Shown: one piece after another, positions 31,781-64,000 of the stretch
Layout: every line of letters starts with the position of its first letter
How positions within the stretch are numbered: the first letter of the stretch is position 1
Origin: a virus
Lineage: Duplodnaviria > Caudoviricetes
IMG/VR virus record: IMGVR_UViG_3300042521_003909
Location: 19,923-83,922 of that record
Direction: 5' to 3' (one strand)
Length of the DNA: 64,000 nucleotides
Position numbers and translations under genes: made by a program
Notes under the pieces: generated by a model
Databases searched by the model: none
What the model was told of the DNA's origin: nothing
Seen by the model: the letters and a program-made list of their open reading frames with translations, nothing else

Positions 31781-31919
31781 TCCCCTTTATCGGATTGCTG
31801 TAGTTCTAAAAGTCGGTTTGTGAAGCCTGCTCTTTTTCCCCCTCGGGGGGAGGACTTGGAGAAAAGCGTCAACAGTCGCTTCCACTACCCAAACTTTCGT
31901 GTAATCTACGAGCATCCCC

Positions 31920-32918
31920 ATGAACGAGCACTTCACACTAAGCGACATCCCCTTTGAGACTTTGCCGCCTGAGAGCATTCGTATGCTCTGTGAGGTGGCG
32001 GTTCGCCACATGGGTAGCGCTGCCTCCGCTAAGGACATGAGCAACCTGCCCCTTACCCCTGTTAGGGGCATGGACTACCGTATTCCTGCAACCATGCGGG
32101 CGTGTCAGAGTTACGGGTACGGACACGGAAACGGGGCTTGGCGTGGGCTAGAGGACAACAAAGAGGCTGTCCTTACTCTGCTTAAGGCAGTTATGCAGGA
32201 GAAGCAGAGTCAGCCTCGCACCCATGTCTCGCTGTCCACCAAAGACATCAGCCCGTCTGTTTTTACAAACCCGGATGTTCTGTCTTTTGTCTTGGACAAT
32301 GCTTCTAGTCTTGGCTGTGATCGTGGGGGTCAAAACGGAGTCATCGAATCATCGGTGTGGTCAGCGGTCAAGGTAGAGCAATGGTTGAGCCTCTTTGAGA
32401 CTCATCCTGCCCTTGTGGGCAAGGCTTTTGCAAGCCGTCCTGAACTGATCGGTCGCCTTTTTTCTCATGTTTTTCGTGGCTCCACTTCTGCACCCATAGC
32501 CATGAATATTGCCAAGACAGTCATTGGCTTCATGCACATCTACGACAACGATAGTCCTGCGATGCTCCATCGTTTTTGGGTGGAGAAAGACACTTCCAAT
32601 CACTACAAGGACGAGGATACTTACAGCGAACTTTTCATGCACCTGTGCGTGGTGTGTCGCAAAGATTCGGTCAACATGAAGCGCATTGCCGATGATTTGG
32701 AAAGTCAGAGCGTTGGCGGCAAAAAGACCCGCCGCCGTGATGCAGGGTGGATGACTATCTACCTGAACACCAAGTGGGATCAAGGTGACAAGGAGTTTGT
32801 CATTCGCTGCTGCCGCCTTGTTCCGCCTTTGTTCAACCTGCTTTACAGCACCGCAAAGGTGTCAGGAGAGATGCGTACCCTCAAGCGCATGTATCAGTTG
32901 AGTGGAGACACGGTGTGA
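31920..32918 (+). CDS. Hypothetical helical protein
   Basis: 332-aa ORF behind the 31833 element; PPLFNLLYSTAK near the C-terminus. Confidence 0.65.
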   Translation: MNEHFTLSDIPFETLPPESIRMLCEVAVRHMGSAASAKDMSNLPLTPVRGMDYRIPATMRACQSYGYGHGNGAWRGLEDNKEAVLTLLKAVMQEKQSQPRTHVSLSTKDISPSVFTNPDVLSFVLDNASSLGCDRGGQNGVIESSVWSAVKVEQWLSLFETHPALVGKAFASRPELIGRLFSHVFRGSTSAPIAMNIAKTVIGFMHIYDNDSPAMLHRFWVEKDTSNHYKDEDTYSELFMHLCVVCRKDSVNMKRIADDLESQSVGGKKTRRRDAGWMTIYLNTKWDQGDKEFVIRCCRLVPPLFNLLYSTAKVSGEMRTLKRMYQLSGDTV

Positions 32919-32955
32919 CAAAAGTGTAATCTATCGGAAAACCGCAAGAATAGTC

Positions 32956-32983
32956 TTGCACGATAGCATACATCGGCTATAAT
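32956..32983 (+). promoter_or_regulatory. sigma70-type promoter
   Basis: TTGCAC-16-TATAAT. Confidence 0.5.
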
Positions 32984-33002
32984 CAACAGTTGGGAACTTT
33001 TT

Positions 33003-33947
33003 ATGCCACGAACTTCTATTTCAGTTGAAGGAGTGCTTGGACACCTGAGCCTCAACCGTGAGGTTGAGTTCATGGTCCAAATGCTCGGCTGGAGTGAATC
33101 TCAGATTTTGGGTGCGATCACGACTGCTCACCCGGAACTTTCCAAAGATCAGCAGTCTCTTATTAATCACATTCGTGTCTGCCGTTCACGATACCGTGCA
33201 GATCAGAAAGAGAATGTCGAAGTGGGCGCACTTATTGGTGGCGGAACCGTTACATCCCTTGACAAGATTGCGGACAAGAAGTTGGTCCGCTTTGCATGTG
33301 GCATCGACCACATTGACATGCTTTGGGGATTCTCTGAAGATGGGAAGTCAAAAGGCTTTCCCCGTGGTCAGATCAGTCTGATTGCAGGAAGTCCCGGTGT
33401 GGGCAAGACTCGCGCAATGATTGCAGTTTGCGGAAAGATTACCGCACCGGATTACCGTCCCGCACTCAAGGCACTTTATTGGCAGAACGAGTTTGCACTT
33501 GAACAGTTCAAGACTGTTTCAAAGACGCAAATCAAGTCGGGCGCACGGTTTAGGTGTGGCGACATTCGCTCTCTCAAAGAGCAGTTGAAGGTGGTTGAAA
33601 AAGAAGTTCCTGACCTTGTGGTGGTTGATTCCATCCAAATGCTTGAAGAAGCAAAGAACAAAACAGGAATGGAAAGATGCATCGCTGCGTATAAATCTGC
33701 TGCGGTTGAAAGCAACATTCATGTCGTACTAGTTGGTCAGTTGAATAAAAAGGAACAGGTCGCAGGAAGCAGGGTGTTGGAACATCTTGTTGACTCGGTA
33801 TTTACGGCAGTTCGTGACCGTGAAACAGGAGGATTCGCCATCCGTTGTACGAAAAACAGATGGGGAATGTCAGGCATCCAAGGTTCTTTCAAGCACACAG
33901 AAAAAGGCATTGAGCCTGTCGGTGACATTACTCAAACGGAGGATTAA
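33003..33947 (+). CDS. radA: RadA/Sms-like ATPase lacking the Zn finger and Lon-like domain
   Basis: GSPGVGKT Walker A, VVVDSIQ Walker B, AGSRVLEHLVD, KNRWG (cf. KNRFG). Confidence 0.8.
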   Translation: MPRTSISVEGVLGHLSLNREVEFMVQMLGWSESQILGAITTAHPELSKDQQSLINHIRVCRSRYRADQKENVEVGALIGGGTVTSLDKIADKKLVRFACGIDHIDMLWGFSEDGKSKGFPRGQISLIAGSPGVGKTRAMIAVCGKITAPDYRPALKALYWQNEFALEQFKTVSKTQIKSGARFRCGDIRSLKEQLKVVEKEVPDLVVVDSIQMLEEAKNKTGMERCIAAYKSAAVESNIHVVLVGQLNKKEQVAGSRVLEHLVDSVFTAVRDRETGGFAIRCTKNRWGMSGIQGSFKHTEKGIEPVGDITQTED

Positions 33948-33949
33948 GC

Positions 33950-34228
33950 ATGAACAACGAAACAAGTTTGGTAAACAACAAGCCCACATTTAAGCCCCTT
34001 CCGATGTGGAAGGTGATTGTTCATAACGATGACATCAATACCTATAACCATGTCATTGGGACTTTCATGGAAATCGTGAAAATGGACAAGCAGACTGCCT
34101 ATGTCAAGACTGTTGAGGTCGATAAAGAAGGCTTGTCTATCGTTTCTGTCACTCACAAGGAGCACGCTGAACTTCTGAGAGATCAGTTGCAGTCAAAGGC
34201 TCTGACTGTCACGATTGAGCCTGATTGA
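33950..34228 (+). CDS. clpS: ClpS adaptor
   Basis: WKVIVHNDDINTYNHV..VDKEG..AE..LTVTIEP. Confidence 0.88.
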   Translation: MNNETSLVNNKPTFKPLPMWKVIVHNDDINTYNHVIGTFMEIVKMDKQTAYVKTVEVDKEGLSIVSVTHKEHAELLRDQLQSKALTVTIEPD

Positions 34229-34405
34229 TTACAAAACAAAGCGGTTGTCGTATAATGGCTATTACGCAGGTTTTCCAAACCTGACATGGGAGTTCGATCC
34301 TCCCCTACCGCATTCCTCTTTTTCCCCCTCGCCGGGGAAGTTTGGGGCGTTGGAACTCCAGCGGGGAGAACCATCATCGTTTACTACAGTTCGGAGAAAT
34401 AACAA

Positions 34406-35428: not shown

Positions 35429-35509
35429 TCCCCCCGCAGGAGTCGGGGAGGGCGGTTCGCCGCTCTCCCCTTCTCCAACTTTTTCCCCCTCCCCCGGTGG
35501 AGTTGGAAC

Positions 35510-36766
35510 ATGGCAAAGAAGAAGAACACAACCTCTACGACCGCAACCGTCCCTGCTCCCGCTACGGACAACGCTCAGGATGTCGGACTTACTCCGTCTG
35601 AACTGAACGAACTCCGTGAGCGCATGAAGGGAATCGTGTTTCGCATGTACCGCTTCTTTCCCTTTTGGGGACTGCTTGCGGAGAACTGCAAGGTTTCCAT
35701 CGTGTCCGATAGCGCAGTCTCAACGGCTTGCGTTGACCGATACGGCAACATCCGTTTCGGAGCAAAGTTCTTCAAGGACTTGAGCGAGGATCAGGCGTTG
35801 TTCGTCCTTGCCCATGAGATCGGTCACGCTGCGTTCAGTCACATTGATCGCCGTCAGAGCCGTGATCCGTTCCTGTGGAATGTTGCGATTGACTACGCCA
35901 TCAATCTGCTCCTGAACGACAACTTTGGCGACTCCAAGTATCTCCCGAAGGGTGTGCTCCTTGACAAGAAGTACGCCGGAATGTCTGCGGAGGAGATTTA
36001 CGAGGATGTCATCAAGAACGCCAAAGTCGTGAAGGTCTACACGATGTCGGGCGACTTGGACTACAACGGTCAGGGCGACGAGGAAGGCGATGGCAATGGC
36101 ATCGTGGTTCGTGATCGCCGTGCAGAGAAGAAGCAGAGTGAGCAGGGATGGGATCAGGCAATCGCCTTGTCTCATGCCCGTGCCAAGATGCAGGGCGAGA
36201 TGCCTGAGTCTCTTGACCGTGAAGTGTCTCGCAAGTTGGAGAGCCGTGTTGATTGGCGTGAAGCCCTGAAGCAGTACCTCCGCTTTGGCGTGACTCGCAT
36301 CATGCGCGACCACTACACCTTCATGCCTCCCAATCGGCGGTTTGTCCATCAGGGGCTTTACCTTCCGTCCATGTACGGACATGACGCTCCGAAGATCGGC
36401 TTTGCCGTGGACACCTCCGGTTCGATGGGTGAAGATGAGATGTCTGCCGCAATCGCTGAGATTGACGAGATTCGCAGACAGTTCAACTGCCCTCTTTACC
36501 TTGTGGAATGCGATGCAGATGTTCACGCAGGGCGTTGGCTCACCCCGGAGGAGTCTTGCCCGACTGCCTTCAAGGGCGGCGGCGGTACGGACTTTCGCCC
36601 TGTCTTTGAGCACATCAAGGACGAGAAGGTTCCCGTGGACATCATGGTGTACCTCACCGATGGCTACGGAGAGTTCGGAGATCAGCCTGAAGTGGATGTT
36701 CTGTGGCTGACCACTACGAACCAAAAGCCTCCGTATGGTGAGCACATTCAGGTCAATGTCGGGTAA
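35510..36766 (+). CDS. Metallopeptidase-like + VWA domain protein (DUF2201-like), MoxR partner
   Basis: AHEIGH, WNVAIDYAIN, VDTSGSM (MIDAS), GGGGTDF, TDGYG. Confidence 0.85.
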   Translation: MAKKKNTTSTTATVPAPATDNAQDVGLTPSELNELRERMKGIVFRMYRFFPFWGLLAENCKVSIVSDSAVSTACVDRYGNIRFGAKFFKDLSEDQALFVLAHEIGHAAFSHIDRRQSRDPFLWNVAIDYAINLLLNDNFGDSKYLPKGVLLDKKYAGMSAEEIYEDVIKNAKVVKVYTMSGDLDYNGQGDEEGDGNGIVVRDRRAEKKQSEQGWDQAIALSHARAKMQGEMPESLDREVSRKLESRVDWREALKQYLRFGVTRIMRDHYTFMPPNRRFVHQGLYLPSMYGHDAPKIGFAVDTSGSMGEDEMSAAIAEIDEIRRQFNCPLYLVECDADVHAGRWLTPEESCPTAFKGGGGTDFRPVFEHIKDEKVPVDIMVYLTDGYGEFGDQPEVDVLWLTTTNQKPPYGEHIQVNVG

Positions 36767-36912
36767 CATGGGGGTGAGTGGTGAAAGCCTCTCACCCTCT
36801 TTTTCCCCCTCCACGGGGGAGTTTGGAGAGTCAGCCGGATGTTCCGGTTGACAGTAGCACTTGAGAGCCGCAAACCAAGTCACATGACTTGTATAGGCGG
36901 CAAGGAGAAACG

Positions 36913-37569: not shown

Positions 37570-37709
37570 CCAATAAAAGGATTGGGGGTTGGGGCTGAAA
37601 AGCCCCTCCCCCGTCCTACGGCTCTTTTTCCCCCTCTGTCTTTAGATTTAGGGGGTCAGGGCAACATAAGAAAAATCAAGAATCTTCTTACATTTGTTAC
37701 TAACATCAC

Positions 37710-42183: not shown

Positions 42184-42262
42184 GGGGTTGAGGGTTCGCC
42201 CTCCCCCTCACCCTTTTACTTTTTCCCCTTAGGGGGAACAGGTTGTGGCAGCAAGGACGACC

Positions 42263-43180
42263 ATGCCCATCCGACACCTCGGTTATGCCTGTCAGAACAT
42301 GACTCTTGGGGCTACGAAGCCCGCCTCCAAGCGTGTCTTTACGGACAGAACGCTGCGGATGGATGGTTTCAGCATCCGCAGGGTCAATGAACTCGCACTT
42401 TCCAACTCACGCGATCTTCTGAAGATCATGTGGTGGAATGTCGAGAACGGCATTCACTTCTTCCGCATTGGTTCGGGAATGTTTCCTTTCATGGATCACC
42501 CGGAACTGAAGTACGGGATTGACGATCTTGCCACCGCACACACCATCAAGGGTGTGTTGGCAGGAGTTGGGGAACTTGCTCGTAAGAACAGCATTCGACT
42601 GTCGATGCACCCGGGACCTTACACATGTCTTGCATCTCCTGACGAGTCTGTTGTTGACAAGTCATTGCTGTGCATGGAGATGCACTCGCTTGTGGGCGAT
42701 CTGCTTGGGATGGATGACTTCCCAATCAACATCCATATGGGTGGCGTCTATGACGGCAAGGAAGCATGTGCGGAGCGTTTTGTCCACAACTTCTCACGAC
42801 TTTCTGAAGGAGTCAGGCGCAGAATGACCCTTGAGAACGATGACAAAGAGGGCATGTGGACAATGCGCGATCTGCTTCCTGTTCACGAAAAGACAGGCAT
42901 TCCACTTGTTCTTGACATTCATCATCACTCTCTCAACTCAGGTGGTGATGATCTGAAAGTTGCTGCTGACATTGCTCTTTCAACTTGGGGTGAAAAAACT
43001 CCAAAAGTTCACTATAGTGAACCAAGAGAGGGCAGCCGTCCACAAGCACATGCTGACTTCATTGTGAATGAGATTCCTGAACTTTGTTCAGTCAGACAAT
43101 ATGATGTGATGATTGAGGCAAAGCAGAAGGAACTTGCCCTTCTCAAATATCGAAACCTCTTTTTCCCCCCAACCGCCTGA
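42263..43180 (+). CDS. uvsE: UV damage endonuclease
   Basis: LGYAC, FFRIGS, RLSMHPG, NIHMGG, LENDD, LDIHHH, KVHYS, HAD, MIEAKQKE. Confidence 0.93.
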   Translation: MPIRHLGYACQNMTLGATKPASKRVFTDRTLRMDGFSIRRVNELALSNSRDLLKIMWWNVENGIHFFRIGSGMFPFMDHPELKYGIDDLATAHTIKGVLAGVGELARKNSIRLSMHPGPYTCLASPDESVVDKSLLCMEMHSLVGDLLGMDDFPINIHMGGVYDGKEACAERFVHNFSRLSEGVRRRMTLENDDKEGMWTMRDLLPVHEKTGIPLVLDIHHHSLNSGGDDLKVAADIALSTWGEKTPKVHYSEPREGSRPQAHADFIVNEIPELCSVRQYDVMIEAKQKELALLKYRNLFFPPTA

Positions 43181-43189
43181 GTTTAGACC

Positions 43190-44311
43190 ATGCCAGCACG
43201 CATCTACGACAATCTTTCCGTTCGCATCGCAAGCGTCAGCAACTCTCACTCCGCTGCTCTTATTGGTAGTTCCATTCTTGGTTGGGGTAGTTCTGCCAAG
43301 AACAAGTTGGACTTCCCGAAGGGCGAGTATCAGAGCGTTGCCTGTGGCTTCTCTCACTCCGCTGCCGTTGATACGAGTGGTCGCATTGTGACCATCGGAA
43401 ACGCGCTTGGCGGCAAGTTGAACAGCGGAACGCTGAACAGTCGTGGACAGTTCAAGACTGTGCGCTGCTCTCGCAACTACACCGCCGCTACGCTTGACTG
43501 CTCCGATGGCAAGTATCGCATCGCCGTCTTTGGCGATCAGCGTCAGTACAGCGTTCTTCCCTCTACGGTGTATTCAAAGACCTCAAAGGACGAAGGTGTG
43601 TTCACCTTTGATTCTGCGATTGGAGACTTTGACATCTCTGATGATGGAACCATTGTGATTGACATGGGCAACGGCAGCGTGACCGTGGTCGGAGCAAGCA
43701 TGTACACGGTCAATGGTCTGACTGCACAAGCGGTCAAGGTGCGTTGCGGCGATACGATGAACACCACGACCGTTGCCATCATTCACACGACCGATCAGAA
43801 GGCTTTTGTTCTCACGCGCAATCACCACGGCATGAAGGTGATGACCGAGATTGCGGGTGATGTGACCGATGTTTTCTGCGGGAATAAGTATTACGGCTAT
43901 GTTGTTGCTTGCCGTGAGATCAATCTCGTTGGAGATCATTTCGGAAACATTCGTATTCCCGATGGTTGGCGCATTGAAGGTGTTGATGGTGGGAACAACG
44001 GGTACGCCATCCGTGTGATCGACAACGATTCGGATAAGCACCTTGTTCTTGTTGGCGACAATACGAAGAACAAGGAACTCGTCATCAATGGCTACGATCA
44101 TCGTGAATGCCCCCGTAAGGACGGCATGATCTACGAGATTCGTGAGGCAAAGGTTGCGAAGGCAAAGCCCACGGTGACTGCCGCAGTCAGTACGATTGCT
44201 GAAGATGGCGGCGAGGATTCCGATTACGAGTGTGAGCCTTGCAAGTTCCGCTTTGCAGCATCATCTCCTGTTTGTCCACTCTGCAAGAACGAGGTGACTG
44301 CCAATGTTTGA
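43190..44311 (+). CDS. RCC1/BLIP-II-like beta-propeller protein with C-terminal Zn ribbon
   Basis: SVACGFSHSAAVDTSG repeat; CEPC..CPLC. Confidence 0.6.
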   Translation: MPARIYDNLSVRIASVSNSHSAALIGSSILGWGSSAKNKLDFPKGEYQSVACGFSHSAAVDTSGRIVTIGNALGGKLNSGTLNSRGQFKTVRCSRNYTAATLDCSDGKYRIAVFGDQRQYSVLPSTVYSKTSKDEGVFTFDSAIGDFDISDDGTIVIDMGNGSVTVVGASMYTVNGLTAQAVKVRCGDTMNTTTVAIIHTTDQKAFVLTRNHHGMKVMTEIAGDVTDVFCGNKYYGYVVACREINLVGDHFGNIRIPDGWRIEGVDGGNNGYAIRVIDNDSDKHLVLVGDNTKNKELVINGYDHRECPRKDGMIYEIREAKVAKAKPTVTAAVSTIAEDGGEDSDYECEPCKFRFAASSPVCPLCKNEVTANV

Positions 44312-44617: not shown

Positions 44618-44648
44618 CTTTTTCCCCCTTTAGGCATGGGTTTCCGGC

Positions 44649-45347
44649 ATGGCTCAGAGGAAGTTTTCCAATCAGGACATCATCAAGGAACTGCGCTCTT
44701 TTATGAAGGAGCGTGATGAATGGAAGGCTGATTTCAACAAGCCAGAGATTCGCAATGTTATTAGCAAACTGTTTGGCTTGAAGAAGTCTCATGTCACTTC
44801 TTCTCCTACCGATTTTGCTCTTGCTCTTGTTAGGAGTGATCTGAATGCGATTTGTTGCATTCCTTCTCTCTATTGGGAGTGGATCAAGGACGAGGCTGAC
44901 AGGCTGATGACGCTACAGCGTGTTGCGGGTACTTACCCGCACAATACTGACGGCGTTCATTTCTGCCTTGTCGCCCTAGAAGGGTGTGAACTTGTTGGAT
45001 GGCAACCTCTTGCCATTCTACTTGCTGCTGGAGTTCGCGTGATTCACGGTCATACCGGAGACTACGACGGGGATTGTCTTTATCTGACATTTCTAGACGA
45101 GAAAGGCAAGGAACTTGACATTGATGACAACTGGGATATTCCAGATTGGCTCATCAGTTCTTCTTCTATTGAAGGGACCAAGGCTCTCCATATCACTTGC
45201 GACATTCTCAAGATGAAGATTGTTTGCGGAGGAGACATGGTTGTGACTCGCGCCTTTGAAGGATGTATCAACATCGCACAAACTGGCAAGATGGCTTATT
45301 CGCTTGATAGCCTGATTACACAAAAGCACAAAGTCTTCCATAAGTGA
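44649..45347 (+). CDS. Hypothetical protein (leaderless)
   Basis: ATG 30 nt after the start of the 44619 element. Confidence 0.7.
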   Translation: MAQRKFSNQDIIKELRSFMKERDEWKADFNKPEIRNVISKLFGLKKSHVTSSPTDFALALVRSDLNAICCIPSLYWEWIKDEADRLMTLQRVAGTYPHNTDGVHFCLVALEGCELVGWQPLAILLAAGVRVIHGHTGDYDGDCLYLTFLDEKGKELDIDDNWDIPDWLISSSSIEGTKALHITCDILKMKIVCGGDMVVTRAFEGCINIAQTGKMAYSLDSLITQKHKVFHK

Positions 45348-45383
45348 CTCGTCTTTTTCCCCCTTTAGCGGTAGGTTTGTTGC

Positions 45384-49179: not shown

Positions 49180-49449
49180 ATGTCGAAGCGTCAGGACGCA
49201 AAGAAGCGGGCTTGGAATGAACTGTACGGTCAGTTAGCGGAGTCTGAAGCCACATTGGAATGTGAAGAATGTGGAACTATGCTGATCGGAGATGGTCCGA
49301 CTTATCAGATCAAGTGCCTTGACTGCTTTCTAAAGCAAGACCCTCTTGAAGAACTTATAGAGATTGCGGAGGAGCAAGATGGACAGCGAAAAGATTCTCA
49401 ACAAGATCGCAAGTGCTCATCTCAAGGAACCAATCGAAAGGCATCTTGA
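49180..49449 (+). CDS. Zn-ribbon protein with DPLEELIEIA motif (leaderless)
   Basis: ATG 30 nt after 49150; CEEC..CLDC. Confidence 0.65.
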   Translation: MSKRQDAKKRAWNELYGQLAESEATLECEECGTMLIGDGPTYQIKCLDCFLKQDPLEELIEIAEEQDGQRKDSQQDRKCSSQGTNRKAS

Positions 49450-49862: not shown

Positions 49863-49895
49863 TGCTTTTTCCCCCTTGCAGGGGGAGGTTGTGGC

Positions 49896-50423
49896 ATGGG
49901 ATACGGATACCACAACACAGAGCACAAGAAGGCTCGTGCCAAGGCGAGTCGTATCTTGAGGAAGAAGTTGCCCGCAGGCTGGCGACTCAGGCTATCTATC
50001 AAGCGTACTCGTCATCCAAAGCACATTTTCCGCAAAGGCTTCAAGCCATATACGGAAATGAGATACGACTACCATTGGGCAACTGCAACAAAGTACCTTG
50101 GTCCAACAAAAGACCACAAGGGATACCCCTACCTCAAGTTGTTTCTTCATCCTGATGGCAGTCGTGTATGGAGTCTTTCCAACTGGGCTGACCCAAACAC
50201 CGCACCGTATGTCAGCACTCAACTAGCACTGCTTTCAGCCACCGAAATGGAGAGAGCGTTTGAATGCCTTGAAGCACTCTACGACATGTGCGACATTCGT
50301 GATGACATGAAGTTGCTCATCGGAATCAGCAAGGCAAAGAGTCTGCCTGACTGGGTAGGTTCTTTTTCCCCCGCCAAGGAAACTCTTGAGGCATGGACGA
50401 CACCCTCATCATCTCCGTGCTGA
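49896..50423 (+). CDS. Hypothetical protein (leaderless); distantly similar to 54440..54919
   Basis: ATG 30 nt after 49866; A.R.....LP.GW shared. Confidence 0.65.
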   Translation: MGYGYHNTEHKKARAKASRILRKKLPAGWRLRLSIKRTRHPKHIFRKGFKPYTEMRYDYHWATATKYLGPTKDHKGYPYLKLFLHPDGSRVWSLSNWADPNTAPYVSTQLALLSATEMERAFECLEALYDMCDIRDDMKLLIGISKAKSLPDWVGSFSPAKETLEAWTTPSSSPC

Positions 50424-51076: not shown

Positions 51077-51223
51077 AGAAATCGAAACAATCCATCTTGA
51101 CAGTTTGACGAGAGGGGCTAGACTAGCCAGTTGCCCTTTTTCCCCCTCCCCCGGCGGGTTTAGGGCAGACGGCTTGAACGGCAAGCCTGATTCCAAAGTC
51201 CACTACTAGAAAGCAGGACTGAT

Positions 51224-52243: not shown

Positions 52244-52308
52244 GGGAATCGGGGAGGGGCGCAAGCCCCTCCCTGCCCTTTTTCCCCCTGCCACCGGAGA
52301 CTTGAATC

Positions 52309-52491
52309 ATGGACAAACTTCTCAAGGAAATCAACCTGAACGAATCGGAACTGATTGCTGCTCTTGAGGCGGCTCGTATCGCTCTCTCCGATGAAGATGT
52401 GTTCACGAAGTTGTCGGAAAACTTGGATATGTCGGGAGAAGCCTTGAGCGATTTGCTCAAGAAGATTGAGCGTTTCATGGGGATGGAATGA
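52309..52491 (+). CDS. Hypothetical protein (leaderless)
   Basis: ATG 30 nt after 52279. Confidence 0.65.
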   Translation: MDKLLKEINLNESELIAALEAARIALSDEDVFTKLSENLDMSGEALSDLLKKIERFMGME

Positions 52492-52611
52492 GAAGCCTTT
52501 ACTCCAAGTCCACCAAGACGAGGCGGGTAAGCGACCTTTTTCCCCCGTCAAAGACGGCTTTTCTGACGACGACGAGTCCTGCTTTTTCAATCACAACCGG
52601 AGGCAAGAAGA

Positions 52612-53004: not shown

Positions 53005-53044
53005 GCAGTTCCTCTTTTTCCCCCTTGCGGGACAAGGTTGAGGC

Positions 53045-53542
53045 ATGGCTACACGCAGCACAATCGGAATGGTTCGTCTTACAGACGGCAAGATCAACGC
53101 GATCTATTGCCATTGGGACGGATATCCCTCCAACAACGGTCTTTGCCTGTACCGGAACTACAATAGCCACGATGGGGCTTGGTCGCTCATGTTGCTTGGC
53201 GACCTATCATCTCTCCGCAGCAAGATCGGAGAGAAGCATGATCTGTTTGATCTTGGCGGTGTTGAGAATCGTGGCGTAACGAATGATTGGTGCGATGCTT
53301 ACGGGCGTGATCGTGGCGATGATGGTTGCGAGATGAAAACCTTTGACAACATTCGGGAGTTCAAGAAGTGGTCGAAGGGTGTTGGTGCTGACTATCTGTA
53401 CCTGTTCAAGAATGACGATCAATGGTGGGTGAATAGCCCTTACGAGTCCACCGGATTCAAGAAACTTGAGAAGGTTCTTGTTGCAGAGGGGGTCATTGAT
53501 CCGATTGAGGAACTGATCGAAGTGGCGAAGAAGTCGCAGTAG
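53045..53542 (+). CDS. Conserved phage protein (leaderless) with DPIEELIEVAK tail
   Basis: MATRSTIG..IYCHWDGYP..GDLSSL..AYGRDRG..YLYLF. Confidence 0.8.
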   Translation: MATRSTIGMVRLTDGKINAIYCHWDGYPSNNGLCLYRNYNSHDGAWSLMLLGDLSSLRSKIGEKHDLFDLGGVENRGVTNDWCDAYGRDRGDDGCEMKTFDNIREFKKWSKGVGADYLYLFKNDDQWWVNSPYESTGFKKLEKVLVAEGVIDPIEELIEVAKKSQ

Positions 53543-53675
53543 GCAACTGCCTCTTTTTCCCCTCACCGGAATGGCTTGGAACACATGGGTGCGGCAGGAG
53601 TTCTCTGACGAGGCGAGTTGGCGTGTTGCTGACTTGTGCACACCTGACCGCACCCTCCAAACAAAGGAAACAACA

Positions 53676-54400: not shown

Positions 54401-54439
54401 CCAGCCGCCTTTTTCCCCCTCGCAGGGGGAGGTTGTGGC

Positions 54440-54919
54440 ATGAAGCAACAGACTACCGCCTACCATTGGACTGCCGAGCAGGGTAAGAATGGCCGCTTTG
54501 AGTACGCAAAGCGCAAGACTGCAAGGGCTGTCAAAGGACAACTCCCACCCGGATGGTCTTACAAGATCATGGCTCCGTATATCGGTGGAGGAGCGCATTG
54601 GTCGATCAAGGTCGATTACTTCAATCCAGTCGGGTCTGGAACGCGACAATGGGTGACGCTGCGTTGGTTCCCGTGTGACGAGAATTGGGATACCGTTTCA
54701 ATGTTCACGGTTCATGCCGTGATTCGACCTGACAGGCACACGAATGAAATGTATGTCAATCAGTCGTTTCAAGAATGGACGAAGGACATCGACAAGGTAA
54801 AGAGTGTCGTGCAGCAGATTTTCGATGGATTGATTCCTGATCCCCTGATGCAACTTCATGCACGGGCAAAGAAGGCAGCCAAGCAGTTTTCCCCCACCGA
54901 TCCCGAGGTTGAGCCATGA
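54440..54919 (+). CDS. Hypothetical protein (leaderless) with DPLMQLHARAK tail
   Basis: ATG 30 nt after 54410. Confidence 0.7.
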   Translation: MKQQTTAYHWTAEQGKNGRFEYAKRKTARAVKGQLPPGWSYKIMAPYIGGGAHWSIKVDYFNPVGSGTRQWVTLRWFPCDENWDTVSMFTVHAVIRPDRHTNEMYVNQSFQEWTKDIDKVKSVVQQIFDGLIPDPLMQLHARAKKAAKQFSPTDPEVEP

Positions 54920-55503: not shown

Positions 55504-55561
55504 ACTAGCCAGTCGCCCGTTTTCCCCCACCGCCCACCGCTTTGGAGCAGAAAGGACAACT

Positions 55562-56101: not shown

Positions 56102-56172
56102 AGACGACGGAAGGGTGGCGGGATGAAACACTCCCGCCGCCCGTTTTCCCCCTTCACCGGAGGCTTTGGAGC

Positions 56173-56604
56173 ATGAACGACACGAACCGAACTGTCAAGG
56201 TCACGATCACGGACATGAAGATCAAGTCTGCTCCTGAGTGGACGCTTGATGTCACCGTTGATGCTGAGGTTGAATGGGTCAAGGGTGGCATCGGCTCCTA
56301 CGAGTTCTGGGGAGCGCAATGCTGCGACAACAGCGCAGGATGGGAGTGGCAGTCTTGGGGCTTTGATCTCATCGTTGCCAAGCGCATCGACGGATCGCAC
56401 ATCCTGATGGTTTCGCAGCCCATTTACTCTGTTGACAATGCTCGTCGTCTGCTTGAGGATTACGGCATCGACCTGTTCTCTTGGCTGAATGAACTGAACA
56501 ATGAGGCAAACAACACCATTGAGGATGCCATCACCAACGAGGTCGCCAAGTTGGATGACAACCCGTGTGCAATGCCTGAACCGCTATTTCCCGAGGAGGA
56601 CTGA
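56173..56604 (+). CDS. Acidic hypothetical protein (leaderless)
   Basis: ATG 30 nt after 56143; GIGSYEFWG. Confidence 0.7.
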   Translation: MNDTNRTVKVTITDMKIKSAPEWTLDVTVDAEVEWVKGGIGSYEFWGAQCCDNSAGWEWQSWGFDLIVAKRIDGSHILMVSQPIYSVDNARRLLEDYGIDLFSWLNELNNEANNTIEDAITNEVAKLDDNPCAMPEPLFPEED

Positions 56605-56808: not shown

Positions 56809-56849
56809 GGCAGCCGCACTTTTTCCCCCTCACCGGGGAAGGTTGGGTC

Positions 56850-57254
56850 ATGGAGATCAAGAAGGACGCATTCCGGCACTTGATATACGAGCGTATGCAG
56901 CAACTTGTCTCATCTGTTAGCGCAAGCATTGACGCGCTCAACGAACTCCTCCCCATGCTTGAGGGAGATGAGATCGACAAGGATGCAATCTGCTATGAGA
57001 CAGACGAGTTTCGCGCTGTTATGAAGGACGCATCGGGAGGCAAACACATTGCCCTCCTCCTGCATCCAAACGGACAAACAATGCACCGCAGGTTCTACTG
57101 CTGGTATTTCGGGGTAGACAGAAATGTCCACGACAACGGATGGCTCATCCTGACCCACCGACATCCAAGCCTGTTCGCTAGGGGATGCATCATGCGCCCA
57201 AACGACTTCACCAAGAGCATGGCACTGCTCAAGACAATGGAGGACACCAAGTGA
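56850..57254 (+). CDS. Hypothetical protein (leaderless)
   Basis: ATG 30 nt after 56820. Confidence 0.65.
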   Translation: MEIKKDAFRHLIYERMQQLVSSVSASIDALNELLPMLEGDEIDKDAICYETDEFRAVMKDASGGKHIALLLHPNGQTMHRRFYCWYFGVDRNVHDNGWLILTHRHPSLFARGCIMRPNDFTKSMALLKTMEDTK

Positions 57255-57475: not shown

Positions 57476-57516
57476 TCCAGTCGCCCTTTTTCCCCTCGCA
57501 CCGGGAGGCTTGCACC

Positions 57517-57819
57517 GTGAAGATCAAACACGCACTGGCTGAACTCAAGCGGATGAAGAAGGATTACGGTGAAGATTGCGACATCTTCTACTTCGCCGTT
57601 GCTCCTGACTTGGTGATGGACGCAGGCGAGACATTCAACAAGCACATCTCCGTCTATTGGGCGCAAAGAATCCTCAAGGACATCAGCGTTGAGGAGGAAA
57701 CCGTTGGTCATGTATTTCAGGCGTTTGATCGCATGGTTGACGAGCGCGTGAGCCTGTTCAATCCTGATCCGTTGGAAGAACTACACGACACAGCAAAGGC
57801 AAAGAGGAAGAAGAAATAA
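57517..57819 (+). CDS. Hypothetical protein (leaderless GTG) with DPLEELHDTAK tail
   Basis: GTG 30 nt after 57487. Confidence 0.7.
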   Translation: MKIKHALAELKRMKKDYGEDCDIFYFAVAPDLVMDAGETFNKHISVYWAQRILKDISVEEETVGHVFQAFDRMVDERVSLFNPDPLEELHDTAKAKRKKK

Positions 57820-58127: not shown

Positions 58128-58216
58128 TCCAGCCGCCCTTTTTCCCCCTCTCCCCTTCCCTTTGGGGCATCGCCTCCCGGTGTGGGAAGCGGACGCAAAC
58201 GCAAGAGGAGACAGGT

Positions 58217-58636: not shown

Positions 58637-58710
58637 CACCGCACCGCATGAGGGGAGGGGCGAAAGCCCCTCCCCTTCCCTTTTTCCCCCGCAGTCGGAG
58701 TATTTCAGGC

Positions 58711-58818
58711 ATGGACACCCTCATCATCATGCTCATCGGATCGAACATCGCGCTGCTTGGCTACCTGTGCCACAAGGACATGAAGCCCAAGCCCAAGCGG
58801 AAGAAGGCGACCGCATGA
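58711..58818 (+). CDS. 35-aa membrane peptide (leaderless; not in the ORF track)
   Basis: ATG 30 nt after 58681: MDTLIIMLIGSNIALLGYLCHKDMKPKPKRKKATA. Confidence 0.6.
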   Translation: MDTLIIMLIGSNIALLGYLCHKDMKPKPKRKKATA

Positions 58819-59196: not shown

Positions 59197-59290
59197 GTCC
59201 TTTCTGCGAAGGGAGCGTTATCCGAAGTGATGCGCTCCCTTCCTCTTTTTCCCCCTCGCGCCGTCCCTTTGGGATGACGAAAGGAGAATC

Positions 59291-59687: not shown

Positions 59688-59779
59688 CTCTTGCGTCCTG
59701 CGGGGCGGGGTGATCCTTTCCCCCGCCCCGCTGCCTTTTTCCCCCCACCGTGGTAGACTTTCAGCAGAAAGGAAACGCA

Positions 59780-59968: not shown

Positions 59969-60065
59969 CGAACCATCTTGCAGGGGAGGGGTTGCATCAC
60001 GAGCGCGCCCCTCCCCACCTTTTTCCCCCGCCGCCTTATCCTTTGGGGCAACAGAAAGGATCAGA

Positions 60066-60383: not shown

Positions 60384-60482
60384 AGCCGTACAGTCCCCCG
60401 GATAGGGCGGGAGGGTTGACGAAAGTCCCCTCCCGCCTTTTTCCCCTTCCATCGTCGTTTTTGGGGCAGAAAGGAACGCAAG

Positions 60483-60740: not shown

Positions 60741-60816
60741 AACAAGGCAGCCGCCCTTTTTCCCCCTCTCCCCGTCCCTTTAGGGTACAGCCCCAAAGGG
60801 CAGAAAGGATCGCAAG

Positions 60817-61182: not shown

Positions 61183-61253
61183 CCCACCGCACCGAATGGG
61201 GGAAGGGGCGAAAGCCCCTCCCCTTTTTCCCCCGCACCGCATGGAGTTCAGGC

Positions 61254-61439
61254 ATGGACAGCAGGATGCGAAACGGAATCATCGGAGCAGTCGTCACGCT
61301 TTGCGTAGCGTTCGCCGTGTCAGCGGGAGCGATGTGGGTGTTTGGTGTTTGGATGGGATGTAGTCCCGTGATTGTTGCTGGCTTTCTTGGAGTCGGTTAC
61401 GCCTGTAACGGCTACTTCAAGCCACCGAACAAGCGGTAA
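61254..61439 (+). CDS. Small membrane protein (leaderless)
   Basis: ATG 30 nt after 61224; two TM segments. Confidence 0.6.
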   Translation: MDSRMRNGIIGAVVTLCVAFAVSAGAMWVFGVWMGCSPVIVAGFLGVGYACNGYFKPPNKR

Positions 61440-61560
61440 CGCACCGCACCGAAGCACCGCACCCACCGTAACGCATGGGGGAAGAAAGAAGGGGAGAGGA
61501 GTACATCCCTCTTTTTCCCCCACAAGGGGCATTTTTGGGGCAACAGAAAGGATCAGACGC

Positions 61561-61752: not shown

Positions 61753-61838
61753 GCACCAATCACGCGCATACATGGCGGCTGGCATCCCTTTTTCCCCCGG
61801 AAAGCGTCCTCTTGGGGTGCAGAAAGGAGCCAGTCGCC

Positions 61839-61997: not shown

Positions 61998-62078
61998 CGC
62001 AAGATACTCCCGCCGCCCTTTTTCCCCCTCCCGTCGCCCCTTTGGGTCAGCCCAACAGGGCAGAAAGGACGCAGCAAG

Positions 62079-62282
62079 ATGAAGCAGAAGCAGCAGGACA
62101 AGCCGTTCGGGTGCGCCGGTGACGGGCGCGAGGTCGAAGCCCGCATCACGGGCAAGGGAGGCAAGTCGTGGACAAGCCTCGACCGCAAGGCAGCAGCGGA
62201 GGGAGATTCCCTCGCCTTCATCGGTCGCCTCTGGCATTGTGTGAAGCACAACTGCCCGACCCCCGAAACCGCCATCGCCTAA
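62079..62282 (+). CDS. Hypothetical protein
   Basis: Cassette leader plus RBS. Confidence 0.6.
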   Translation: MKQKQQDKPFGCAGDGREVEARITGKGGKSWTSLDRKAAAEGDSLAFIGRLWHCVKHNCPTPETAIA

Positions 62283-62419
62283 CGGTGGCAACCGCCCCGA
62301 AGGGGGAGCCGCAAGGCTCCCCCTTCACCGTTTACTCCCGCCGCCCTTTTTCCCCCGCTCATCGTCCCTTTAGGGCATCAACCCAAACGCCCCAAACGGG
62401 GCAGATAGGACGCAGCAAG

Positions 62420-62899
62420 ATGGACAAGTCGCAGAAGATCGCAGCCCTCGCCGCCCTCATCAGCAGCAGCCCCGACAAGGCGGAGTTCGCCGCCTCCCTC
62501 ATGGGTGCGCTCGTCAAGGGCAACCCGACCCCGAAGCAGTCGGAGTGGATCGACCGCCTCATCAACGAGGCGCAGAACCCCCTCCCCTCGCTCAACCTGC
62601 ACGGGCTGGTGGAGTCGTTCCGCCTCGCCGCCCTCACGGTGAAGTTCCCGAAGGTCGTGATGTCGGTGGACGGGCAGGATGTCACGCTCTCGTACACCCG
62701 CCCCGACTCCGAGAAGGCGAAGCCCGAGAACAAGGACACCGTGGGCGTGGCATCGGGCAAGTGGGGCGACCCCGCCGCCAAGTGGTACGGGCGCATCGGT
62801 GCGGATGGCGTGTTCAAGCCCGGAAAGGACGCGACCCCCGCCGTGGCGGAAGCCCTCGCCGCCCTTGACCCCAACGCCCTGCCGTGGAAGAAGCGGTAA
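62420..62899 (+). CDS. Hypothetical protein, paralog of the N-terminal part of 50393..51076
   Basis: FA.SL..TPKQ..G.V..F..Y.G.I...GVF shared. Confidence 0.7.
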   Translation: MDKSQKIAALAALISSSPDKAEFAASLMGALVKGNPTPKQSEWIDRLINEAQNPLPSLNLHGLVESFRLAALTVKFPKVVMSVDGQDVTLSYTRPDSEKAKPENKDTVGVASGKWGDPAAKWYGRIGADGVFKPGKDATPAVAEALAALDPNALPWKKR

Positions 62900-63027
62900 G
62901 GCAACCCAAACCCCGAAGGGGGAGCCGCAAGGCTCCCCCTTCCCCATTGCGTTCGATCCCGCTGCCCTTTTTCCCCCGCACTCACTCCCTTTGGAGTGTT
63001 CCAACGGAACAGAAAGGACGCAGCAAG

Positions 63028-63315
63028 ATGACCAAGTGGATCGTTAGCACCCAGTACATGGAGAACTACGCCGAGGACGGCGGGGACTACTGGAAGGCGA
63101 AGGGTGGCTCCGACTACGCCGTGACCGCCGCTACCGCCGAGGAAGCGGAGCGCATCGTGCAGGAGAAGAAGTGCCACAAGACCCGCTACTCCGAGGAGTA
63201 CATCTACGGAGCAACCATCCCCTACGACGAGTGGGTGGCTGAGTTGAAGAAGTCGTGCAAGTTCGAGGACTCGCTCAAGTTCTGGATGGAGTCCGTCGAA
63301 ACGGTGGAAGCGTGA
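63028..63315 (+). CDS. Hypothetical protein
   Basis: TQYMENY..YWKAKGGSDY; cassette leader plus RBS. Confidence 0.7.
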   Translation: MTKWIVSTQYMENYAEDGGDYWKAKGGSDYAVTAATAEEAERIVQEKKCHKTRYSEEYIYGATIPYDEWVAELKKSCKFEDSLKFWMESVETVEA

Positions 63316-64000
63316 GCGAGGGGAGCCGCAAGGCTCCCCCGCCTCTTTTTCCCCCTGCACAGCCGTACAAAGAAGCATCTGCGTCCGCCGCCCTGTTCCC
63401 CCACAAGGGGAACGGGGCGTGCTTCATTGCATAGAGGCAGCGCCGGTGTGGAAGGAAGCGGAGTACAGGGCGAGCCGGCATGGGAGAAGATTCCAAGATG
63501 GAGCAGCCGGTATGGAAGGAACTCCAGTCCGAATCCATCCAAACCACGGTCTGAATCCATCCAAACCAACTCCGCAGCGGCAGAGCAGCCACAAGTGCAT
63601 ACACTATACCCCCCACCCGGGGGTGTCTATATAGGGGTGATTTGGGTAAAGGGGGATACCTTAGCGGCTTCTTCGAATTTTGATGTAATCTATCCTAGTT
63701 TAAAAAATCGGGGGGAAGAATTTTAAGAAAATGGGATATCCTAAAAAAGGGATACCTTAGGGAGTTCGGGCAATAATACAATATTCAAAGAAGAGGTAAA
63801 ACATGCACAAGATCATAAGTCCATTAAGGGGTGAAGAAGTTCACGGCAAGGACGAGGCGGAGTATTTTAAGGAAATTGTATCACACATAGACACTGGAGT
63901 AGATCATACTTTCATATTTACTGTATGGGAATGGCCTATTGTGGACCCTCCAGAAGGAGCGATAGTGTTTTCCACTTCTGACGAGAGCCACAAGCAGCCA

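Follow-up and report, generated by a model that had tools for sequence, protein, structure and literature searches.

Forty copies of a bipartite element, all on the + strand, were found in the window (the whole 64,000-nt stretch analysed here, part of an 84-kb virus contig), and they probably constitute one phage-specific promoter class that is read via a phage-encoded, sequence-specific protein, as judged from sequence comparison. In each promoter, an upstream box at -31..-21, reading CTTTTTCCCCC in the window phage, would be followed by the core (T)TT-GGRG-C-A at -8..+1 after 12 nt of fixed length and free sequence. The A of the conserved CA is most likely the transcription start. In 19 units, the start codon would begin with this same A and the mRNA would be leaderless, and in most of the remaining units it would open a 13-57-nt leader carrying a AGAAAGGA-type Shine-Dalgarno (SD) sequence. 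The protein recognising the upstream box could be an RNA polymerase of the phage, an activator through which the host polymerase is recruited, or a sigma-like subunit. With its roughly 40 short, co-oriented units, the block may represent a single regulon, and its gene content and layout suggest that it is probably of the early or delayed-early class.

Copies, geometry and genomic setting

The pattern [GT]TTTTCCCC[CT] matched 40 times on the + strand and not once on the - strand of the contig, always within 31833-63355. The matches comprised 33 exact TTTTTCCCCC, three GTTTTCCCCC and four TTTTTCCCCT, with starts from 31833 to 63346. On the full 83,922-bp contig, the exact form occurred 33 times forward and 0 times in reverse, with 0 copies outside the block. 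When one mismatch was allowed, 45 matches were obtained against 5.8 expected (maximum of 15 in 100 shuffles), and a 35-nt PWM scan of both strands revealed no extra site, the remaining matches being +/-1 shifts of the same 40 and none lying on the reverse strand. These searches bear out the initial annotation, which had placed 40 copies at 31.8-63.3 kb on the coding strand only. The GC content was 45-59% in the copy block versus 34-40% in window positions 1-16000.

31832..63376, +, block of 40 promoter-like copies, type A (motif and PWM searches)
31832..31863, +, copy 1: divergent junction with - strand gene 31061-31780; 57-nt leader to ATG 31920
34318..34349, +, copy 2: begins 7 nt past tRNA-Gly (34241-34312); 57-nt leader, MoxR-like ATPase gene 34406-35428
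35479..35510, +, copy 3: ATG at +1, DUF2201 metallopeptidase/VWA gene 35510-36766; strong hairpin upstream
36799..36830, +, copy 4: ~59-nt leader to ORF 36889-37569; hairpin upstream
37624..37655, +, copy 5: 163 nt before AT-hook gene 37818-38540; sigma70-like site 37710-37737 between
42219..42250, +, copy 6, TTTTTCCCCT: 13-nt leader to UvdE gene, ATG 42263
43159..43190, +, copy 7: within UvdE ORF 3' end; ATG at +1 (43190-44311)
44618..44649, +, copy 8: directly behind tRNA-Leu (44533-44618); ATG at +1
45353..45384, +, copy 9: ATG at +1 (45384-46601)
46616..46647, +, copy 10: ATG at +1, DUF6915 gene
47451..47482, +, copy 11: ATG at +1
48196..48227, +, copy 12: ATG at +1
49149..49180, +, copy 13: ATG at +1; in-frame TTG 39 nt upstream
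49865..49896, +, copy 14: ATG at +1
50362..50393, +, copy 15: within 3' end of ORF 49896-50423; ATG at +1, DUF6011 gene
51136..51167, +, copy 16: 57-nt leader to DUF932 gene 51224-52243
52278..52309, +, copy 17: ATG at +1; strong hairpin upstream
52536..52567, +, copy 18: 45-nt leader; -1/+1 = AC
53014..53045, +, copy 19: ATG at +1; PHROG match from residue 1
53553..53584, +, copy 20, TTTTTCCCCT: core shifted 1 nt; start codon uncertain
54409..54440, +, copy 21: ATG at +1
54885..54916, +, copy 22, GTTTTCCCCC: within 3' end of ORF 54440-54919; ATG at +1, exonuclease-like gene
55518..55549, +, copy 23, GTTTTCCCCC: 13-nt leader CAGAAAGGA... with SD
56142..56173, +, copy 24, GTTTTCCCCC: ATG at +1; hairpin upstream
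56819..56850, +, copy 25: ATG at +1
57486..57517, +, copy 26, TTTTTCCCCT: GTG at +1
58138..58169, +, copy 27: 48-nt leader to ATG 58217
58680..58711, +, copy 28: ATG at +1, ORF only 35 aa; strong hairpin upstream
59245..59276, +, copy 29: 15-nt leader with SD; hairpin upstream
59735..59766, +, copy 30: 14-nt leader with SD; hairpin upstream
60019..60050, +, copy 31: 16-nt leader with SD; hairpin upstream
60437..60468, +, copy 32, TTTTTCCCCT: 15-nt leader with SD; hairpin upstream
60756..60787, +, copy 33: 30-nt leader with SD, DUF3846 gene
61223..61254, +, copy 34: ATG at +1; hairpin upstream
61511..61542, +, copy 35: 19-nt leader with SD
61788..61819, +, copy 36: 20-nt leader with SD
62018..62049, +, copy 37: 30-nt leader with SD
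62346..62377, +, copy 38: 43-nt leader; hairpin upstream
62967..62998, +, copy 39: 30-nt leader with SD
63345..63376, +, copy 40: upstream box only (without TT or YR), behind strong hairpin

The full signal reads C-TTTTT-CCCCC (-31..-21), a 12-nt spacer constant in length and variable in sequence, and (T)TT-GGRG-CA, of which the A is the presumed +1. TT occupies -7/-6 in 38/40 copies, a pyrimidine-purine (YR) step spans -1/+1 in 34/40, and +1 is A in 30/40, in agreement with the earlier description of TT nearly everywhere and the YR step in most copies. Positions -5..-1 are G+C-rich, which is unusual for a melting region and was counted against a promoter reading. Two of the 40 copies are weak, namely those at 53554 (core shifted by 1 nt) and 63346. 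Since the latter is an upstream box alone behind a strong hairpin, it may be non-functional or terminator-linked. Copy 18 has AC at -1/+1 and therefore a weaker core.

A start codon begins at motif start +30 in 19/40 copies (18 ATG and one GTG; binomial P = 7e-17), while adjacent offsets hold 0-3, and all 19 coordinates are identical to those annotated initially. Sixteen of these 19 codons are the first in-frame start after a stop, and the N-terminus of the copy 10 gene is fixed because its Pfam DUF6915 match begins at residue 2. Most of the other copies precede leaders of 13-57 nt with a AGAAAGGA-type SD; in these the CA is still conserved and the SD often begins 2-8 nt past it (CAGAAAGGA), so that the fixed point is the CA and not the ATG.

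Where the ATG lies at +1, the sole room for a promoter is the motif itself. As had been noted, three copies lie within the 3' ends of upstream ORFs (43160 in 42245-43180, 50363 in 49896-50423 and 54886 in 54440-54919). Copy 1 is located at a divergent junction behind - strand genes, as it is in the relatives G001 and G006. Two copies directly follow tRNAs (tRNA-Gly and tRNA-Leu), and 14/40 directly follow hairpins of -20 kcal/mol or stronger, the remaining 26 having no such hairpin.

Exchange of the upstream box among relatives

Relatives were found in IMG/VR and in metagenomes. They had the same block, geometry and downstream core, with different -30 boxes:

Type B -30 box: GAATCCCGAAAAC
Type C -30 box: AAAGTTCCCGTATCAGCGG
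Type D -30 box: AAATCCCGCAAAC

Type B sites, reading GAATCCCGAAAAC...GTTAGGGCA, numbered 37 in G006 and 16 in G007; L119 had 11 sites reading AAAGTTCCCGTATCAGCGG...CTAGAGCA, and L121 (type D) had nine reading AAATCCCGCAAACG.CAG...GGTTAGGGCA. No reverse-strand sites were found in these four relatives. The ATG at +1 is kept by orthologous genes across box types.

G001, which is syntenic at 68-83% nucleotide identity, had an orthologous site for 34/40 copies. In these 34 pairs, identity was 0.99 at -29..-21, 0.97 at -31, 0.97/1.00 at -7/-6 and 0.85 at +1, versus 0.48 in the spacer and 0.39-0.40 further upstream (-70..-34). Between G000 and G001, position -30 changed from T to G in 17/34 pairs. 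The type B genome G007 and the type D genome L121 share about 91% DNA identity, and two of their proteins are 98% and 95% identical. Their orthologous promoters nevertheless carried the same substitutions in 4/4 aligned pairs (-30 G>A, -22 A>C and -16..-13), and the sequence flanking a switched box can be 100% identical. In close relatives, the box is exchanged in all copies at once, with core, spacing and genes staying in place.

The replacement of the box in every copy of an otherwise retained layout points to a phage-made polymerase or factor with ever-changing specificity. This concerted switching, together with the first copy at a divergent junction and the copies behind terminator-like hairpins and tRNAs, argues for a promoter class with a phage-encoded determinant. 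The observed footprint, the four boxes sharing one core and the concerted switch uphold two proposals of the initial annotation: a bipartite promoter-like element of fixed geometry, and a reader determinant encoded outside the window, which on this evidence also evolves with the phage.

Transcript starts, the reader and alternative explanations

Where the start codon lies at +1 (19 copies), GGAG/GAGG-like purines occupy -13..-9. The mean duplex energy of these copies with a generic anti-SD probe was -7.0 kcal/mol; the real SDs of leader-bearing genes gave -9.0, random positions -2.1 and the remaining 21 copies -1.7. The statement that these genes have no SD was thus not borne out. The leaderless reading keeps its start codon at the presumed +1 (19/40) but is weakened by this SD-like tract inside the spacer, since the tract lies at the canonical distance and would have no use if no transcript began upstream. 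All type B and type D copies contain the purine tract whether or not an ATG lies at +1, and it is therefore at least partly a promoter feature. Such purines may also make the same genes translatable from read-through transcripts.

An alternative is an upstream transcription start, with the conserved 30 nt forming part of the RNA as a translational-operator, processing or 5'-UTR element and with ordinary SD-led translation of the 19 genes. The SD-like tract is in its favour, as are contigs of the only RNA run, assembled from a 90-95% relative, several of which bridge motif copies (51137, 52279, 54410, 58139 and 59246); this bridging fits read-through or DNA carry-over and is uninformative about starts. 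However, upstream of -33 there is no conserved sequence able to serve as a promoter, copy 1 has no + strand gene upstream, and other copies come immediately after a tRNA or a strong hairpin. The distance from the box to TT and CA does not change even when the ATG is 13-57 nt downstream, and the type B/D tract is indifferent to an ATG at +1. We consider this alternative unlikely. It is very improbable that the motif marks transcript ends, its T-run serving chiefly as the U-tract of an intrinsic terminator: although the 14 hairpins lie within a few nt of their copies and a terminator scan listed hairpin-plus-TTTTT at 52250, 58650, 61204 and 63320, 26 copies are without such a hairpin, comparable hairpins precede boxes without a T-run in types B-D (G007 3714, L121 7734), and the downstream core and the ATG at +30 are left unexplained.

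As for the reader of the proposed promoters, no sigma70 r2/r4, T7-type RNAP or beta/beta' domains were found in five virus records, which cover about 10-21% of the estimated genomes (roughly 20% for the window phage); in the T7-type search, the control was likewise without a match, so that this negative is uninformative. The suggested search for relatives and reader genes thus recovered the motif class in relatives and no sigma or RNAP gene in records of that coverage. Sigma70-like sites in the block were at chance level (13 versus 13.9 expected; 9 versus 10.8 expected), and none was placed at a predicted +1; near-perfect consensus matches occur elsewhere in the block at 38927-38954 (12/12) and 37710-37737 (11/12). 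Comparative evidence likewise supports the earlier view that the element is unlike sigma70, sigma54 and T4 late promoters.

It appears improbable that the host supplies both the RNA polymerase and an alternative sigma factor (e.g. ECF-type) for these sites, with no phage specificity factor involved and with box differences reflecting different hosts. The type B box, (C)GAAT-N18-GTT, matches the SigR/SigH-type ECF consensus GGAAT-N18-GTT, two elements around a spacer of constant length and free sequence are a sigma-like arrangement, and YR at -1/+1 fits a multisubunit polymerase. Yet genomes of about 91% identity differ in the box at every aligned copy, which is too fast for host sigma specificities; the TTTTT of the window's type A box has no ECF resemblance, and GTT at -8..-6 leaves just 5 nt to +1, short for a -10 element. 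In the genome_contigs collection, the strict type A pattern gave 77 single matches, with no contig among those listed having more than one; several matches occurred in one MAG only, on separate large contigs.

Comparison with known systems

The Thermus phages phiYS40 and P23-45 produce many leaderless transcripts with the host polymerase from -10-type elements. The window phage is similar in that many genes would have the start codon at the transcript 5' end, as predicted from their position, but its promoter is of another kind. ECF-sigma promoters (GGAAC/GGAAT at -35, GTC/GTT at -10) share the two short elements and fixed-length spacer, and type B relatives read GAAT-N18-GTT. Unlike them, the type A box is TTTTT, both elements are about 4 nt nearer the presumed +1, and no sigma domain was found in records covering about 10-21% of the estimated genomes. 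T4 middle promoters combine a MotA box centred at -30 with a sigma70 -10 element, with AsiA. The likeness lies in a phage-specified box at about -30 in place of -35 with recognition by a phage protein, as proposed for the window phage, whereas the PWM here shows neither the MotA box sequence nor a TAnnnT -10 element.

Like phiKZ-like jumbo phages, the phage is huge and has many short units. The early promoters of phiKZ-like phages, read by a virion multisubunit RNAP, are AT-rich motifs of about 10 nt centred near -10; here, in contrast, the main block lies at -31..-21 and is half C-run, only the TT at -7/-6 is A/T, and the fragments examined (about 10-21% of the estimated genomes) had no beta/beta'-like domain. 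T7-group phages (T7, T3, SP6 and K11) have many near-identical one-strand promoters read by a single-subunit RNA polymerase; in each lineage, all copies have shifted to a lineage-specific variant in step with the polymerase specificity. The four box types and the concerted switch between about 91%-identical genomes resemble this. A T7-type promoter is one contiguous element (-17..+6) with G as the first transcribed base, whereas the present signals are split into blocks at -31..-21 and -8..+1 by a free 12-nt spacer, and 30/40 have A at +1. Phage-specific promoters that co-evolve with their reader are thus a kind already known, and the signals described here would be a variant of it.

The element, its block and its footprint in a close relative

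The initial annotation had described a recurrent element confined to one strand, and scanning confirmed 40 copies on the coding strand only, the pattern [GT]TTTTCCCC[CT] matching 40 times on the + strand (31833-63346) and never on the - strand. Thirty-three copies are exact, three begin with G and four end with T. Across the full contig, exact copies numbered 33 forward and 0 reverse, with 0 outside the ~32-kb + strand block that carries the element, and a 35-nt weight matrix revealed no extra sites on either strand. With the first base of the box numbered -30 and the presumed start +1, the element consists of C at -31 (39/40), TTTTT CCCCC at -30 to -21, 12 variable bases, and a core made up of T at -8 (23/40), TT at -7/-6, G G R G, C at -1 (30/40) and A at +1 (30/40). 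The TT pair, said to occur in nearly all copies, was present in 38 of 40. A start codon lies exactly 30 nt on from the first base, at +1, in 19 of the 40 copies (P = 7e-17), a claim that was borne out position by position, and three copies do lie inside the 3' ends of upstream ORFs as described. In 16 of these 19 ATG(+1) copies no other in-frame start codon lies between the preceding stop and +1, and the N-terminus is fixed for two of the genes, since family matches start at residue 1 or 2 (DUF6915; phrog_1987).

A related IMG/VR record, G001 (49.5 kb), and smaller fragments were recovered by a pattern scan of IMG/VR. G001 is syntenic with the source record G000 (68-83% nucleotide identity), carries 39 copies on one strand and 0 on the other, and has an orthologous site for 34 of the 40 copies. 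When these sites were anchored at +1, identity was 0.99 at -29 to -21, 0.97 at -31, 0.97 at -7, 1.00 at -6 and 0.85 at +1, as against 0.48 in the spacer and 0.39-0.40 upstream (-70 to -34). Aligned in this way, the two conserved segments at a fixed distance appear as a clean phylogenetic footprint. In 17 of the 34 orthologous pairs, T at -30 in G000 corresponds to G in G001, and the start codon at the predicted +1 is retained in 16 pairs.

The block encodes a KaiC/DnaB-like ATPase, ClpS, a MoxR-like ATPase with a VWA/metallopeptidase partner, UvdE, an exonuclease-like protein and DUF proteins (DUF932, DUF3846, DUF6011, DUF6915, DUF4259, DUF5983 and DUF1281_C), together with many small ORFs, several tRNAs and a tmRNA. 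We infer from this gene content, and from the layout of one promoter per small gene, that the block fits an early or delayed-early class.

Features of the block and of the region to its left (window positions)
22889, 23716, 24271, 24675 and 26883 (within 22889-26900): second recurrent upstream signal, TCTTAAGAAAATTCGGGCA, with (A)ATG ~10-20 nt on
31833-63355, + strand: the 40 copies of the element
31920-32918: gene 1 of the block
34349-34405: leader (57 nt) of the MoxR-like ATPase gene
35510-36766: DUF2201 protein gene
37625: copy of the element upstream of the AT-hook gene
37710-37737: 11/12 sigma70 consensus site, also upstream of the AT-hook gene
37818-38540: AT-hook gene, 240 aa, ~8 GPGRPK AT-hook repeats
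38927-38954: 12/12 sigma70 consensus site with extended TG (TTGACA-16-TATAAT), before the next two features
39006-39296: ORF
39338-39697: phage tmRNA, tag ANESLMAVAA
40178-40855: ORF with the look, by eye, of an HNH homing endonuclease
40483-40932: group I intron (Rfam 82.7 bits; region 40178-41461), overlapping the preceding ORF
58139-63376: distal 5 kb, 14 very short units with ORFs of 35-159 aa

Several of the distal units resemble one another in their leaders (CAG-CCCCAAAGGGCAGAAAGGA...) and in having a CCCTTTGGGG core, a similarity suggestive of tandem duplication of promoter-gene modules. In the MoxR-like ATPase leader, the stretch ACTCCAGCGGGGAG is kept in types A and B under different boxes (types A-D being lineage variants of the -30 box, type A that of the present phage) and may be a conserved 5'-UTR element. 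The C-terminal domain of the AT-hook protein weakly resembles the Bacillus Rok DNA-binding domain (PDB profile search: Rok E = 0.08, HMG-I/Y 0.14); hooks are less numerous in the type B-D relatives, and the 70 nt around the sigma70 site upstream of its gene are identical in G001. Since the 12/12 site matches the sigma70 consensus, the phage also uses host-type promoters within the block. The intron ORF has no match in G001, a 91% match in the IMG/VR record G006 and a 75% match in the metagenome locus L121, a presence/absence polymorphism typical of a mobile intron.

CheckV completeness of the 83,922-bp source record, of which bases 19923-83922 form the window, is 21%, which implies a phage genome of roughly 400 kb. 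The window encodes 10 tRNA genes, the tmRNA (99.5 bits, Rfam) and the group I intron. Since Shine-Dalgarno (SD) sequences in the window are of the AGAAAGGA type and two near-perfect sigma70 consensus sites occur in it, the host is a bacterium that uses sigma70 promoters and SD sequences in the ordinary way. Megablast of 20 kb against 50,697 phage records found no close cultured relative, and the MoxR-like ATPase was <42% identical to any protein of the phage records. Window 1-16000 has a GC content of 34-40%, the block one of 45-59%; G006 is likewise split (45-59% inside the block, 33-37% past its end), and such heterogeneity within one phage genome is unusual. The low-GC flank (contig 1-19922 and window 1-31800) encodes sugar-modifying enzymes, namely three epimerase/dehydratase-family proteins (one a GDP-mannose 4,6-dehydratase), a fucosyltransferase-like GT10 and a GT4 glycosyltransferase, as well as a short adenylosuccinate synthetase and a metallophosphatase. 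Past its block, G006 has glucose-6-phosphate dehydrogenase and 2-hydroxyacid dehydrogenase genes. The TCTTAAGAAAATTCGGGCA copies lie in front of successive paralogous genes for repeat proteins (LRV/HEAT matches, weak) and represent either another promoter class or a portion of a duplicated unit.

Probable promoter role and predicted start site

Comparative evidence gives good support to the reading of the element as a promoter, and the arrangement of the copies agrees with it. The first copy of the block adjoins - strand genes at a divergent junction in G000, G001 and G006, so that no + strand RNA reaches it for processing. Fourteen copies stand behind strong hairpins and two directly behind tRNAs, and where an ATG follows the T-run by 30 nt, the element itself is the only room for a promoter; conservation upstream of -33 is absent. 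In leader-bearing copies, CA holds a fixed place and the SD often starts a few bases on (CAGAAAGGA). The fixed point is thus CA, as expected for a start site with a pyrimidine at -1 and a purine at +1, and transcription is accordingly predicted to start at +1. Contigs from one metatranscriptome run (a 90-95% relative, 0.07 of sampled words), which are silent on starts, ends and strand and whose gaps in coverage carry no meaning, bridge five copies.

Termination could be a further role, since one unit in three has the T-run behind a hairpin, as a possible U-tract. Only 14 of the 40 copies follow a hairpin that reaches -20 kcal/mol, so the G+C-rich hairpin with an immediate U-run that marks intrinsic terminators is an add-on here and not general. 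Comparable hairpins also stand before the T-run-free boxes of types B and D, and termination is therefore not the main role of the element. The translation signals bear on where transcripts begin. The ATG(+1) copies had been described as having no SD, which proved wrong: -13 to -9 is GGAG/GAGG-like, and the duplex energy with a generic anti-SD probe was -7.0 kcal/mol in these copies, -1.7 in the other copies, -2.1 at random positions and -9.0 for true SDs. This tract speaks for the promoter being included in at least some of the transcripts, and transcription starting upstream of the element is a conceivable alternative to a start at +1. Since all type B and D copies have the tract, it belongs at least in part to the promoter. 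With a start at +1, the element could have a dual use, in which a leaderless mRNA would be made from the gene's own promoter and SD-led translation would occur on read-through. Promoter, optional terminator U-tract, SD-like tract and start codon fit within 33 nt, an economical design.

Box types and the search for the reader

More distant relatives, namely the IMG/VR records G006 and G007 and the metagenome loci L117-L127, were found by searching with the DUF2201 protein; among the loci, L125 covers 21 kb of a 162-kb type-B metagenome contig. These relatives are without the T5C5 run and have kept the one-strand block, the gene order and a core ending in CA (often CATG).

Box and core of the other types
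Type B, G006 (37 sites) and G007 (16 sites): CCCGAATCCCGAAAAC-GG...GTTAGGGCA
Type C, L119 (11 sites): CTAAAGTTCCCGTATCAGCGG...CCTAGAGCA
Type D, L121 (9 sites): CCCAAATCCCGCAAACG-CAG...GGTTAGGGCA

No opposite-strand copies occur in the type B, C and D records. T at -27 and CC at -25/-24 are common to all four types, and in the orthologues of DUF2201, the RCC1-like gene and DUF6915, the ATG stays at +1 beneath differing boxes. Type C is conserved across the whole of -34 to +1, nearer to the style of T7-like promoters. Across IMG/VR, type-A patterns matched nothing beyond parts of the block in the few records already known and single chance sites; eight single-match loci compared with the relatives by tblastx yielded nothing, a scan of the genome_contigs collection gave 77 single matches, and the type-B pattern was multi-copy only in G006, G007 and one fragment. 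None of the records that include flanking sequence has the element outside the block: G000 lacks it over the ~51 kb to the left, and in G006 (74.9-kb contig) the stricter type-B word TCCCGAAAA has no + strand site past 44,894. Owing to this confinement, the element defines one regulon and is not the general promoter of the phage.

G007 and L121 are ~91% identical in DNA over 5.9 kb (MoxR-like protein 98%, DUF2201 protein 95%), yet the same changes (-30 G>A, -22 A>C and -16 to -13) were found in four of four alignable promoter pairs, out of nine type-D sites, sometimes within 40 nt of otherwise identical flank. Moreover, G007 is nearer to L121 than to G006, although G006 has the box of G007. 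Box switching is thus concerted and rapid. Boxes that differ in every aligned copy between genomes so similar are not explicable by a host sigma factor, nor is T>G at -30 in half of the G000/G001 sites. In T7-group phages, promoter and polymerase specificity change jointly, the pattern seen here. It also resembles the early motifs of phiKZ-like phages, which differ from phage to phage (PMC7598289). A phage-encoded reader, that is, a specificity protein recognising the upstream box, is therefore probable.

Searches for Sigma70_r2, Sigma70_r4_2, Rpb2_6 and Rpb1_2 in G000, G001, G002, G006 and G007 gave nothing above the cut-off, and the one sub-threshold Sigma70_r2 match has two internal stops. 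T7-type RNA_pol had no match in the same five records, a blank that is uninformative because the control genomes likewise gave none. No sigma factor or polymerase was found when 56 ORFs of the window and a further 13 from L112 (contig 1-19922), L036 and L037 were compared with Pfam or PHROGs. Three candidates from the block, suggested by how they diverge, were rejected. Gene 1 is hypervariable (55% identity to G001; 50% between G007 and L121, with neighbours at 88-98%), but its divergence does not track the box type, being just as great (51%) between G006 and G007, both of type B. It looks like an arms-race gene, and leads in the protein Atlas, all helical-repeat and below 0.9, suggest a helical-repeat protein. 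The two genes after it are slightly nearer to G006 than to L121 in G007; since they encode the KaiC/DnaB-like ATPase and ClpS, this looks like a recombination boundary and not the reader. The AT-hook protein, 91-93% identical between G007 and L121, does not track the switch between types B and D.

It is possible, if rather doubtful, that this narrow clade of huge freshwater-type phages has an undescribed phage-encoded initiation system with at least four distinct specificities, based on its own polymerase or on a sigma-less box-binding factor. If so, the box types would be a natural set of orthogonal promoter/reader pairs. Huge phages are known almost solely from metagenomes, and little is understood of how they control gene expression. 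In the present case a complete regulon of ~40 units, the likely start of each unit and the specificity positions, which are those switching in concert between near-identical genomes, could be defined from sequence. Which protein reads the promoter and how its specificity changes thus becomes a directly testable question. Once the reader is identified, the four box types would make ready-made orthogonal expression parts.

Comparison with known promoter classes

No description of the element was found in the papers searched, supplements aside. Among the matches listed for the string TTTTTCCCCC, none concerned phage promoters by title or abstract; queries on leaderless promoters of huge phages found only unrelated literature, and no papers naming the DUFs of the block together were found.

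The element had been set apart from the sigma70, sigma54 and T4 late classes, and this distinction held. Sigma70 promoters have hexamers like TTGACA near -35 and TATAAT near -10, spaced by 16-18 nt. The weight matrix of the 40 copies has neither A at -11 nor TTGACA; sigma70 consensus sites in the block were at chance level (13 vs 13.9 and 9 vs 10.8 expected), and none on the + strand ended 5-9 nt before the predicted +1. Sigma54 promoters have GG at -24 and GC at -12, unlike the element, which has C at -24 in every one of the 40 copies and no conservation at -12. T4 late promoters carry TATAAATA at -10, where the spacer here (-20 to -9) is variable and G/C-rich. T4 middle (MotA-dependent) promoters combine a box centred at -30 with the sigma70 -10 element TAnnnT. 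The position of the box is alike (-31 to -21 here), but its sequence differs and TAnnnT is absent, so that the resemblance would be mechanistic only.

ECF-sigma promoters have a GGAAC/T-like -35 element, a spacer of 16-18 nt, a GTC/GTT -10 element and a start 6-8 nt on. The GAAT-N18-GTT of the type B relatives recalls this class, whereas type A has TTTTT-N18-KTT. GTT lies at -8 to -6, only 5 nt from +1, and both elements are ~4 nt too near the presumed start. Promoters of T7-like single-subunit RNA polymerases are contiguously conserved from -17 to +6 with a G start, which is not matched by type A, with its free spacer at -20 to -9 (0.48 identity) and A at +1 in 30 of 40 copies. The N4 virion-RNAP promoter contains a short DNA hairpin, a feature that sets it apart from the element. 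Here, -25 to -2 folds at a mean of -4.6 kcal/mol as against -3.9 for shuffles of the same composition, and many G006 copies, with CTGG, lack an intact CCCG-AAAA-CGGG repeat of type B. Early promoters of the phiKZ-like vRNAP are ~10 nt long, AT-rich, highly conserved and centred near -10 (PMC7598289). They are not matched by the present blocks at -31 to -21 and -8 to +1, with -13 to -9 being purine- or G/C-rich.

Under the tentative reading of a separate initiation system, the geometry is closer to TATA/initiator promoters than to bacterial -35/-10 promoters, with A/T bases in a box near -30, TT at -7/-6, a YR initiator and AUG at +1. By analogy, the element would function as phage-specific promoters do in the T7 group and in phiKZ-like phages, with its box at -30 placed as in the MotA-dependent promoters of T4.
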